Origin: a virus
Taxonomy: Duplodnaviria; Heunggongvirae; Uroviricota; Caudoviricetes
Reading direction: 5' to 3' (one strand)
IMG/VR virus record: IMGVR_UViG_2636415959_000002
Length of the DNA: 50,938 nucleotides
Shown: positions 8,898-11,968 of the stretch, one piece after another
How the letters are laid out: each line of letters opens with the position of its first letter
Position numbering within the stretch: the stretch's first letter is position 1
Made by a program: the position numbers and the translations under genes
The notes under the pieces: model-generated
Told to the model about the DNA's origin: nothing
Databases searched by the model: none
Seen by the model: the letters and a program-made list of their open reading frames with translations, nothing else

Positions 8898-9159
8898 CGA
8901 GATTAAAGTGCATTAGTTCAGATGCAAATTGACATTTTGTGGCACAGGGTAGAGCTAGCGTGGTTGTCCGCTTTGTGCCAACAGCGGACATTATGGAAGG
9001 TCAGAGTTAAAGATTAAAATGGGATGCTGTGTGTTTTCTCCAGGTTTTGCTCTATACCTTTCGGGATACTCCACCGACAGAATACGAAAATCAACATTAT
9101 CAACGGCTCGAAGTGTCTAGATTATCCATGGCAATTCATGGGAAATCCCATCCAACGGC

Positions 9160-10551
9160 TTATGCTTCATGTTGCTTTTTGAGATCGCTTCTAGCATAGC
9201 TCCACTCAATAATGTTGTCGGGTCGTTGCTGATCGAAAAGGATACGGGATTCAATACCATTACCTAAAAAGCTGGTATTCCCATCTACGTAAGAAGCTAT
9301 CCCTTGTGAACCAACACGAAGAATATTTTCTAATGGCTGCTTTGTTCTTGCTGCATCGCTAAGGAGATATAAACCCGGGTACGTTTTGTTAGCACGGTGA
9401 AAAAAAAGTTCATTGTCAAAACACATGACGATGATTATTTGTCCCGACATGAGATCGGAGAGCATTTCAGTTGGCAGATGCAAACTCATAAATGGTCGAG
9501 ACAAAGGGTCAAAGAATGAATCATTTATATTCACAACAGGGCTTTTTATACCGAGACTATCCATCCATCCATTGAAGGCAACAAAGCCCATTTCAGAATC
9601 ACGGTACATACCTAAGAACAAACATTCATCAATAGTATCAATTGCCCAATTTTTTCCTCCGCGAATAATCTCCCACATTTTAACTAAGCGGTGGGTATAA
9701 AATTCAGACGGATGATCTATCTCATTGATTTTAACTTTAGACTGATGAAAGTTGTCAAAGCCCTCGCCAGTATTAATCGCCTCCAGAACATTCATGCCAC
9801 GAATGATTTGCCTTTTTATGCGATTAAATTGCTTAACATCATTATCAGGCATATTGTTAATGAAGTTTTCTTCAAAGTGCGGACATTCTGAGATAACAGA
9901 AAATTCAGCAGCTTCATAAAGCTCATTATTCTTTTCACCTGTTTTAACTTCCACGAGCTGGAAGCCATCCAGTAGATTAAAGGTGACTAAATCTCCCACA
10001 TGAACAAATGTGCTCATGTCAGAGACAATCGCTACGGAGTGTTTGTCCTGGTTGATAAGATCGGCTGCGACCATAGAATCAATTATGTTATCTTCTGATA
10101 GATTGTCATTGCTTGCATTAATAGGTAAACGCCGCAAACTAGAGTGTTCTTCATCAAGAATGCTCCAAATTATTGAGTCAATACAACGGCGAAGAATAAG
10201 AATTTCAAATTTTTTTAAACTTATTTCATCAATACACTTTTCTTTATTTTCTTTATCCTTGTTTCGATGGTGCTCTTTTTTTTCAGTTTCCAATCTTTTT
10301 ATATCTCTCAGCCGAATAATAATCTCAAAAGATATGATTTTTTGTGAGTCTTTCCAATTTTTGAGACAGGTTTCATACTCTGCAAGAAAATCCTCATCAT
10401 TGGAAGGTAGTTCTTGAATTGGATTCCCTCCCCTTATCATTTTGGCAAGTGCATGCATTAAAGATACATAATGAGGCGATAAAATTGTCCAAAACTTCCT
10501 AAACGGTTTGTACTTTTCAAGAAAAGTTGACTCATCAGTATAATTCATCAT
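9160..10551 (-). CDS. Uncharacterised 463-aa protein, downstream partner of the AbiH-like gene; possible PD-(D/E)xK nuclease-like core
   Basis: ORF 9160..10557; likely ATG at 10551 (MMNYTDEST) with GAGG upstream; AT-rich codon usage; segment FVHVGDLVTFNLLDGFQLVEVKTGEKN fits D-x13-E-x-K; no Walker motif or other signature recognised. Confidence 0.6.
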   Translation of the reverse strand: MMNYTDESTFLEKYKPFRKFWTILSPHYVSLMHALAKMIRGGNPIQELPSNDEDFLAEYETCLKNWKDSQKIISFEIIIRLRDIKRLETEKKEHHRNKDKENKEKCIDEISLKKFEILILRRCIDSIIWSILDEEHSSLRRLPINASNDNLSEDNIIDSMVAADLINQDKHSVAIVSDMSTFVHVGDLVTFNLLDGFQLVEVKTGEKNNELYEAAEFSVISECPHFEENFINNMPDNDVKQFNRIKRQIIRGMNVLEAINTGEGFDNFHQSKVKINEIDHPSEFYTHRLVKMWEIIRGGKNWAIDTIDECLFLGMYRDSEMGFVAFNGWMDSLGIKSPVVNINDSFFDPLSRPFMSLHLPTEMLSDLMSGQIIIVMCFDNELFFHRANKTYPGLYLLSDAARTKQPLENILRVGSQGIASYVDGNTSFLGNGIESRILFDQQRPDNIIEWSYARSDLKKQHEA

Positions 10552-10640
10552 AACCAAACCTCATTCCTCTTATCTATTTTCCTCAAGGTATAAAATACCA
10601 GCCTTTTTTACATAATTATAGTTATAATATGAAGTCTCAT

Positions 10641-11510
10641 TCAGATATCTTCATACTGTACGTAAGAAATATTTGAGCCTCTGATACCATAATCTTCTAA
10701 ACTGCCTGATTTTTTCTCACCTCTATATAAAGCAACTATCCATCGAGCATTTTCTTGGATGCTTTTATTTATTTCAGTAAAGTATTCACCGTCAACTTCG
10801 GCGAGCGAGTGGCCTAAAACGATGACCTCGTCCACATTTTTAAGCGATGAGAAAAAAACGTTTTCTTCTTTAATTATGTCTTCGCTGGGCTTGAATGTAT
10901 TACCGAAGTATTCGTTTATTCTGTCGTATGCCTCTGCTATTCTTGTATCTTGATCCGGTCCTATATATGGATTTAGTGACTTTTCCACCCTAAAACTATG
11001 ACCAAGTATGAGATCGTCATCGTAACTACAATTGCCGTGAATATGTATGATTTGCTCGTCTGGAACGGCATAGATCTGCTGCAAGGTATTTGTATAATTA
11101 AATGAAAAATAGATGCTTTCTCTTGGTATGGGCGGGATGTATTGCTTAGGATTGTAAGCATCGGCTATGTTAATCCCTTTAACCCAATCAGCGAATTGCT
11201 CCTTCAAACGAGCTGACAGCATTTGTGTGATTTTATTTACTTCATATTGGTAATCGTGATGATAAGCATCGCTCCAATCATCGGTATTGTATGAAGCCAA
11301 AAATATCTCACTGTTTTGAAGGATAAGCTCATAATCAATTTCACCTAAAGCATTTTCTAACTCATTCCACTCGTCCCCAGCAGGAATGTATTCTTCTATC
11401 GCGTCATATAGATCTTGGTCATTTTTTTCTACATACGACTTAAAGTGCTTGTATCCTGTTGGTAAGCCATGACGCATGTCAAATCCATTTCCTATTATGT
11501 AAAGCCTCAT
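10641..11510 (-). CDS. AbiH-family (abortive infection) protein
   Basis: 289 aa from internal ATG (MRLYIIGNGFDMRHGLPTGYKHF) with AAGGGA RBS; the IIGNGFD-x-HGL-x-T-Y motif is the N-terminal signature I recall for the AbiH family; AT-rich. Confidence 0.7.
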   Translation of the reverse strand: MRLYIIGNGFDMRHGLPTGYKHFKSYVEKNDQDLYDAIEEYIPAGDEWNELENALGEIDYELILQNSEIFLASYNTDDWSDAYHHDYQYEVNKITQMLSARLKEQFADWVKGINIADAYNPKQYIPPIPRESIYFSFNYTNTLQQIYAVPDEQIIHIHGNCSYDDDLILGHSFRVEKSLNPYIGPDQDTRIAEAYDRINEYFGNTFKPSEDIIKEENVFFSSLKNVDEVIVLGHSLAEVDGEYFTEINKSIQENARWIVALYRGEKKSGSLEDYGIRGSNISYVQYEDI

Positions 11511-11968
11511 TGTTTTTCCCTTAGTCGAATTGTATAAAAATACTAACATGGCCTGCTCCACGTTGACTACTATCCCCTCCTTTGAGTAATGCCTTCATCA
11601 GATGTAACAACATTTGCGAGCTTCCACAGTTCGCTCAAAGCGGACTAGAAGGTTAGCTTGCGTCGGACTTGGCGTATTTAAAGAAGTGCTGGTGGAGACT
11701 GGTTGTTGTGTTCCATTTCTACAGAACAAAATCACAGAAACTATACCCAATAGTTATATTGAATCAATGATGAGACAGCCTCATATTTATCAGGACTGGT
11801 GTACGTCCAATACAGGAGGTTGTCGTGCTGGTTCTCAAATGTGCGCTAGCTATTGCGGCTGTAATGGCAATTTATTGTCTTGCTGTTGTTCTTACGGATC
11901 GCCTTTCTGATTGATTTTATATTGGCGAGGTGACGTGAGTTAAGTAGAATTGCTGCGGGTGCTTGAGG

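Follow-up and report, generated by a model that had tools for sequence, protein, structure and literature searches.

In the Shedu nuclease of Bacillus cereus, four motifs have been described: E204 (motif I), D249 (motif II), E264 and K266 (motif III), and Q295, which lies on a long helix (motif IV); the closest structural relative of Shedu is EndoMS (bioRxiv 10.1101/2023.08.10.552793). Among abortive-infection proteins, AbiH has been reported to resemble sirtuins (SIR2-like), and the lactococcal gene was obtained by cloning as a lone abortive-infection determinant (Prevots et al. 1996), listed without mention of a second gene (PMC13064643). Abi_2 and DUF3644 have been described as HEPN domains (PMC3710099). 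The locus presented here lies in a stretch of 50,938 nucleotides from a Caudoviricetes virus (IMG/VR record IMGVR_UViG_2636415959_000002), hereafter called the window, in which an AbiH-family gene is followed on the same strand by a gene for a 463-aa protein. A possible PD-(D/E)xK nuclease core had been predicted in this second protein, at 9943–9993, from a short segment. The three residues on which that prediction turned are invariant across a large and divergent protein family, and the comparison that follows concerns how far this family can be related to known nucleases and to AbiH.

The 463-aa protein and its invariant residues

The minus-strand open reading frame occupies positions 9160–10551 (stop codon included) and encodes 463 aa from an ATG that is preceded, at 7 nt, by a GAGG; an alternative TTG start at 10557, two codons upstream of the ATG, would give 465 aa. 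The RefSeq entry for the protein (WP_000982358.1) is named 'hypothetical protein', and the literature searched contained no report on this accession or on a two-gene AbiH system in E. coli. On the minus strand, 9943–9993 translates to DLVTFNLLDGFQLVEVK, and the 22 residues FVHVGDLVTFNLLDGFQLVEVK correspond to residues 182–203 of the frame. The peptide put forward in the original prediction, an Asp followed 14 residues on by E-V-K, is therefore present by translation, with an Asp-to-Glu distance of 14. Its numbering as D189, E203 and K205 fits the TTG start; counted from the ATG, as in RefSeq and below, these residues are D187 (codon 9991–9993, minus strand), E201 (9949–9951) and K203 (9943–9945). 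As a sequence pattern by itself, D...E-x-K is only mildly unusual, and its weight comes from conservation in relatives. The loose form D-x(8-30)-[DE]-x-K is found 8 times in the real protein against about 6.7 times per shuffled copy and, being as frequent in shuffled copies, carries no information. Of the stricter form with hydrophobic context, [GPSA]-D-h-h ... h-h-[DE]-h-K, the protein has a single instance, that of the 9943–9993 site; the form turned up in 2.1% of 5000 shuffles.

A word-indexed search returned 48 relatives, all from Gammaproteobacteria and 43–96% identical, in which D187, E201 and K203 are invariant along with 60 other columns. A second word-indexed search with a broad alignment brought almost no additional members. 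The broad family alignment was also too divergent for a locus search, and a species-level genome scan gave 3 loci only. A profile search over 1.84 billion cluster representatives found 681 family clusters (at 50% identity, from several bacterial phyla) at E <= 0.001, with 501 at <= 1e-10. More informative is a diverse alignment of the window protein with 134 mostly full-length members, which are 19–54% identical to it and for which the mean column identity is 20%. Only seven columns are invariant in these 135 sequences, namely D178, D187, E201, K203, G205, R244, and Q248, and the same seven are invariant in 131/131 core-only segments. The three residues singled out in the original prediction are thus among the very few that never vary (135/135), and the calculated chance that seven random invariant positions among ~460 would include D187, E201 and K203 is about 2e-6.

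The spacing of the invariant residues is also informative. Across the family alignment, D178 and D187 are always 9 residues apart and R244 and Q248 always 4, whereas D187 and E201 are separated by anything from 13 to 24 residues; the hairpin turn accounts for this whole range, as expected for such a turn. In the 135-sequence alignment, the E-x-K belongs to a family signature, E-h-K-x-G-x-x-N, in which the invariant G205 and N208 (132/135) directly follow the E-x-K (9928–9939, minus strand). Judged from the alignment, two Asp, a Glu, a Lys, an Arg and a Gln, together with a Gly, would be the signature of a catalytic site and not of a scaffold. Outside the seven, Q70, D125, W129, R141, G264, D266, C310, G314, Y316, P353, G432, and P444 are near-invariant; as these positions are distributed along it, the whole 463-aa polypeptide is under constraint.

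Several members are of interest for their own sake. A relative at 26% identity lies on a 609-kb Bacillus cereus plasmid (NZ_CP129006.1, 520956–521845), where it is annotated as three separate hypothetical proteins; with it the family reaches into Bacillota, although the copy may be a disrupted one. Four long members (P0163, P0165, P0166, and P0184; 669–690 aa) have a conserved N-terminal extension, from residue 1 to about 210, that begins GILAYGSL(I/V)DDPG and has no match among PDB sequences. Its YGSL start may resemble that of gamma-glutamyl-cyclotransferase-like domains. A fused AbiH, Abi_2 or DUF3644 domain in this extension would have argued for functional coupling, but it showed no similarity to any of the three.

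The AbiH cassette and other gene neighbourhoods

The AbiH-family gene lies at 10641–11510 on the minus strand (289 aa from the Met at the start of the Pfam match; the RefSeq start is at 11549). It was identified by Pfam PF14253 (E 6.6e-69; 233 bits against a cutoff of 30.9; model positions 1–258 of 260), by PADLOC AbiH (E 1.3e-27) and by RefSeq. The two genes form a discrete 2.4-kb cassette (9138–11547, minus strand), which was delimited by GC content and nucleotide comparison: it has about 33–38% GC, against 45–57% in its flanks, and its two genes run antiparallel to those of the prophage on either side. The flanking genes comprise replication genes on one side (replisome organizer, DUF977) and hokD, DUF968, rusA and an antiterminator on the other. 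A copy that is 93% identical in nucleotide sequence is found on the Enterobacter hormaechei plasmid pMS-37c, between unrelated flanking DNA and with a DNA ligase gene, phoH and a Gp49-family gene as neighbours. As DNA homology is confined to 9138–11547, the AbiH gene and the 463-aa gene move together as one 2.4-kb cassette.

The surrounding region of the window (~1–21000) is a Rac/Qin-like lambdoid prophage of E. coli, with annotated genes for an integrase, an excisionase, a RecE-type exonuclease, dicB, ydfD, hokD, rusA, an antiterminator, tRNA-Met, lysis genes and cspI; the AbiH cassette is located between the replication genes and hokD. In about 50 complete E. coli genomes (hits H35–H39), only 5' fragments of AbiH remain (61%, 22% or 7%) and the 463-aa gene is absent, which suggests repeated or inherited deletions that took the nuclease gene together with the 3' part of AbiH. 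In E. coli PSS-10 (NZ_AP027685.1, 2319377–2321545; hit H25), an IS1B insertion interrupts the 463-aa gene.

This arrangement raises the question of whether the two proteins constitute an obligate two-component system, in which neither functions without the other: one would sense infection or regulate, and its companion would be the effector, through SIR2-type NAD+ depletion and/or cleavage of DNA. We regard this as doubtful, although of all the alternatives it deserves the most serious consideration. The genes are on the same strand and only 89 bp apart, and the spacer (10552–10640) contains no terminator-like site and one weak promoter-like site (9/12 matches). The pair moves between a lambdoid prophage and the Enterobacter plasmid as a cassette with sharp boundaries, and the two proteins have diverged equally (90% protein identity for AbiH, 91% for the 463-aa protein). 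The intact genes also co-occur in E. coli, in 63/5426 complete genomes for the 463-aa gene and 64/5426 for AbiH; however, the E. coli copies are nearly identical, so that this co-occurrence counts as a single event. In sister clades, other single-gene Abi-type effectors occupy the same upstream position: the Pantoea and Erwinia relatives (~55% identity) lie 17–18 bp downstream of an Abi_2 gene, and a Dickeya relative lies 17 bp downstream of a DUF3644 gene.

Against an obligate pair, close relatives at 43–50% identity are found without a companion, whether in P2-like prophages, in conjugative elements or in chromosomes. Among the sites of stand-alone relatives are the tail modules of P2-like prophages (cargo sites), the position immediately downstream of integrase and CI genes of P2 type, a conjugative element's transfer region, and positions beside a gene for a giant polyvalent protein or next to AAA_15, UvrD-helicase and pP_pnuc genes. 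Distant members have no conserved neighbour either: in 41 metagenomic loci none was found, the genes nearby encoding TPR and TatD proteins, an IS110 transposase, an AMP-binding enzyme, an AAA_15/21 ATPase and unknowns. The N-terminal regions are alike in paired and unpaired clades, and the lactococcal AbiH is listed in PMC13064643 as a single gene. Across the family, conserved co-occurrence and co-orientation with AbiH were not found; linkage is limited to the closest clade, that is, E. coli prophages and the Enterobacter plasmid, which share the same 2.4-kb cassette. The description of the 463-aa protein as a 'partner' of AbiH thus holds as adjacency in the window, in E. coli and on the Enterobacter plasmid, but not for other clades, which have Abi_2, DUF3644, unrelated genes or nothing upstream. 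From these varied and stand-alone contexts, the 463-aa gene appears to be a self-contained unit, which some lineages carry downstream of one single-gene Abi effector or another.

Other observations from these neighbourhoods can be added. Defence-island neighbours of the family include a KAP NTPase and Mrr_cat on a Pantoea plasmid contig (L006, 1–1654), Fic and PDDEXK_4 in Dickeya (L003, 6594–9531), and AAA_15, UvrD-helicase and pP_pnuc in Aeromonas (L010, 1200–7798). In Morganella morganii (L089, 1856–3903), a homologue lies 97 bp behind a pair of co-oriented genes whose products (367 and 315 aa) have no Pfam match and no known function; this gene pair may be a fourth type of upstream companion. 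A clade of 485–495 aa (P0028–P0047), which includes the solitary copies of P2-like prophages and conjugative elements, ends in a Lys/Arg-rich tail of ~25 residues (alignment columns ~470–500). Neither the AbiH-linked nor the Abi_2-linked clade has this tail, but the DUF3644-linked Dickeya copy does.

The same exchange of upstream genes could also be read in another way, as a conserved hub: the 463-aa protein would pair with swappable upstream Abi effectors (SIR2-like AbiH, or the HEPN proteins Abi_2 and DUF3644) and use its own nuclease site when alone. Such an arrangement is unlikely and is not favoured here. The genes for AbiH, AbiD and AbiF are regarded as single-gene systems, and a modular sensor with a swappable effector, if this reading were true, would be an arrangement not yet described for any of them.

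Predicted structure and profile comparisons

Two AlphaFold models were obtained, one of the full-length protein from a 27-sequence alignment (mean pLDDT 78.9) and one of residues 135–463 from a more diverse 33-sequence alignment (pLDDT 87.0). Both contain a helix (153–167), three strands (172–178, 183/188–192, and 196–201) and a helix (206–221), after which come two more helices, the second being a long one (236–261) that carries Q241, R244, and Q248. Models and core alignment together delimit a core region, residues 140–280 (9712–10134, minus strand), made up of helix 153–167, three strands, three helices and a small hairpin. D178 (codon 10018–10020, minus strand) ends the predicted strand beta-1 and is, by its invariance, a candidate third acidic ligand. 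The segment from D187 (motif II-like) to E201-V-K203 (motif III-like), at 9943–9993, forms a predicted beta-hairpin in which D187 and E201/K203 sit on adjacent strands. If the register inferred from the secondary-structure string is right, a three-residue turn (193–195, with 192 paired to 196) would put D187 opposite E201, with K203 on the same side, which would correspond to the motif II/III arrangement of restriction-endonuclease-like enzymes. Downstream, Q241-x-x-R244-x-x-x-Q248 on the long predicted helix (9808–9831, minus strand) is, by analogy with the Gln on the long helix of Shedu, a candidate counterpart of nuclease motif IV. The core is preceded by a long N-terminal helical hairpin (residues 52–132; 10156–10398, minus strand), in which Q70, D125 (Asp in 123/135, Asn in 11/135) and W129 are near-invariant. 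It is followed by a C-terminal alpha/beta region (residues 281–463; 9163–9711, minus strand), defined from model and alignment, that gave no structural match and in which D/E308, C310, G314, Y316, P353, G432, R/K436, and P444 are conserved.

Fold searches did not bear out the relation to PD-(D/E)xK structures on which the original prediction had been made to depend. Foldseek found nothing for the model in the PDB (best E 0.3), and the automated fold searches gave no restriction-endonuclease-like match despite a confident model (329-residue query). A false negative is plausible, as a minimal nuclease core within a query of this length would score around or below the display cut-off; besides, the truncated model (135–463) does not include helix 100–132, which carries the near-invariant D125 and may be the motif I helix. 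Significant matches to the 463-aa protein were likewise lacking in Pfam, NCBIfam, PADLOC, PHROGs, and PDB sequences, and no homologue was found in the INPHARED phage collection. Single-sequence and family-profile searches of PDB sequences returned spurious matches only (chaperonin 11, a ferritin-like protein) and no nuclease.

When the 131 core segments were scanned one by one against Pfam at a permissive threshold, the commonest match was SduA_C, the Shedu nuclease domain, with 9/131 members (best E 0.0027, sub-threshold). NERD and PDDEXK_10 followed with 2 sub-threshold matches each, and the best unrelated family had 3. The two SduA_C matches that were mapped are collinear over D178...D187...E-x-K (segment 30–111 against model positions 14–99 of 159, and 41–79 against 34–65); for this model (PF14082), the best member scored 18.3 bits against a cutoff of 27 and the window protein was unmatched. 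PADLOC SduA matched one family member (E 0.0025), no family being recurrent in the PADLOC scan of the core segments. In NCBIfam, the commonest match was YraN, with 5 members (best E 0.0024, sub-threshold). A single local hhalign alignment to YraN set D187 against YraN D51 and E201-x-K203 against E64-x-R66, over 16 columns and without significance (P 0.076). The YraN template consisted of enterobacterial sequences only, 75–97% identical, which accounts for a shallow profile and for the non-significant hhalign result. A Shedu sequence for profile-profile comparison was sought on plasmid pO111_1 of E. coli O111, where nothing recognisable was found. As all of them lie under curated cutoffs and depend on the same motif, the weak SduA_C, NERD, PDDEXK_10, and YraN matches are corroboration and not proof.

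These results leave room for a different view of the invariant residues, according to which D/D/E/K/R/Q form a real active site of another fold or chemistry, such as that of a metal-dependent phosphoesterase or a nucleotide-processing enzyme, the likeness to D...E-x-K being convergent. The silence of the fold searches and the sub-threshold score of every profile match would fit this view, as would the weak GGDEF match of one family member (E 0.0011). However, the predicted order of elements, with the hairpin bearing Asp and E-x-K before the Gln/Arg helix, fits the nuclease superfamily, and a PD-(D/E)xK family is the commonest weak match in two independent HMM libraries, so that convergence on another fold appears quite improbable. 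The original prediction is thereby supported in part: the PD-(D/E)xK reading is carried by the invariance, the secondary-structure order and the sub-threshold profile matches, but not by a fold match or a significant profile match.

Proposed function and relation to known systems

Even a true nuclease could serve the mobile element itself, through homing-type spread, competitor exclusion or recombination, in place of anti-phage defence. The family is indeed found as single-gene insertions, often antiparallel, between conserved modules of many unrelated elements. Yet its members recur next to known defence genes and in known cargo sites, no interrupted target gene was seen, and at ~460 aa, with additional N- and C-terminal regions, the protein far exceeds the known PD-(D/E)xK-type homing endonucleases in size. 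A function of this kind is therefore very improbable. A non-enzymatic protein, with a motif that arose by chance or has only a structural role, is barely credible. The bare pattern is indeed common by chance, and a structural match is lacking, but the charged residues never vary among 135 very diverse sequences that have hardly any other constant position.

The explanation favoured here, with moderate confidence, is that the 463-aa family represents new, unannotated PD-(D/E)xK-type nucleases that are carried as cargo by mobile elements and act as single-protein defence. The sequence, its invariance, the predicted secondary structure, the gene contexts and the limits of the cassette are direct results; from them we infer the fold assignment, catalysis, DNA substrate, defence role and mode of regulation as follows. 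Residues ~150–270 would constitute a divergent, metal-dependent nuclease domain of the PD-(D/E)xK type. The catalytic metal would be bound by D187 as motif II and by E201 as motif III, with D178 as a possible further ligand, and K203 would be engaged with the scissile phosphate. From the long helix that comes next, R244 and Q248 would reach the phosphate backbone, a contact made in Shedu by motif IV. By analogy with single-protein defence nucleases such as Shedu, the N-terminal helical hairpin and C-terminal alpha/beta region could serve in oligomerisation and/or in holding the enzyme in check before infection. The gene would be a self-sufficient cargo of P2-like and lambdoid prophages, conjugative elements and plasmids, which in the prophage of the window would be stacked with a SIR2-like AbiH in one mobile 2.4-kb cassette. 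A defence role is probable, given the low-GC antiparallel cassette, the cargo sites, the defence-gene neighbours and the patchy presence among E. coli genomes.

If the prediction holds, it adds a widespread nuclease family of mobile elements, for which neither Pfam nor NCBIfam, PADLOC or PHROGs gave a significant match, and one more candidate single-gene anti-phage system, with seven defined residues. It also raises the question of whether the position downstream of AbiH, Abi_2 or DUF3644 reflects cooperation or the stacking of defence genes. To the specialist, the finding will be useful rather than surprising, because regulated PD-(D/E)xK defence nucleases are already familiar.

Compared with known systems, the 463-aa protein has no similarity to AbiH, beside which it is encoded. 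With YraN/UPF0102 (Pfam PF02021), a family of small predicted endonucleases, it shares the Asp...E-x-(K/R) arrangement, which in YraN consists of G-E-I-D-L-I then F-V-E-V-(K/R), with an Asp-to-Glu spacing of 13; YraN differs in being a 131-aa, housekeeping-type single domain, and the similarity is insignificant over its few aligned columns. As none of their profiles was matched above threshold, the protein belongs neither to Shedu nor to YraN nor to any other defined family, and a likeness in the way they work can only be inferred. With Shedu, the resemblance extends over several levels. Both have a motif II Asp with an E-x-K ~14–15 residues later (D249 and E264/K266 in Shedu, D187 and E201/K203 here) and a conserved Gln downstream on a long helix. 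The motif IV candidates here are Q241 (Gln in 110/135, His in 25/135) and the invariant Q248; for motif I, a Glu in Shedu, the candidates are the invariant D178 and the 91%-conserved D125. Both proteins also have extra, non-catalytic and potentially regulatory regions, and both are mostly encoded by single genes in mobile elements or defence islands, with an occasional small partner gene upstream (KELShedu, PMC12577705). Neither the libraries nor the literature searched gave a significant match to the family, to its architecture or to its seven-residue signature; as a kind, the regulated mobile-element nuclease is already known.
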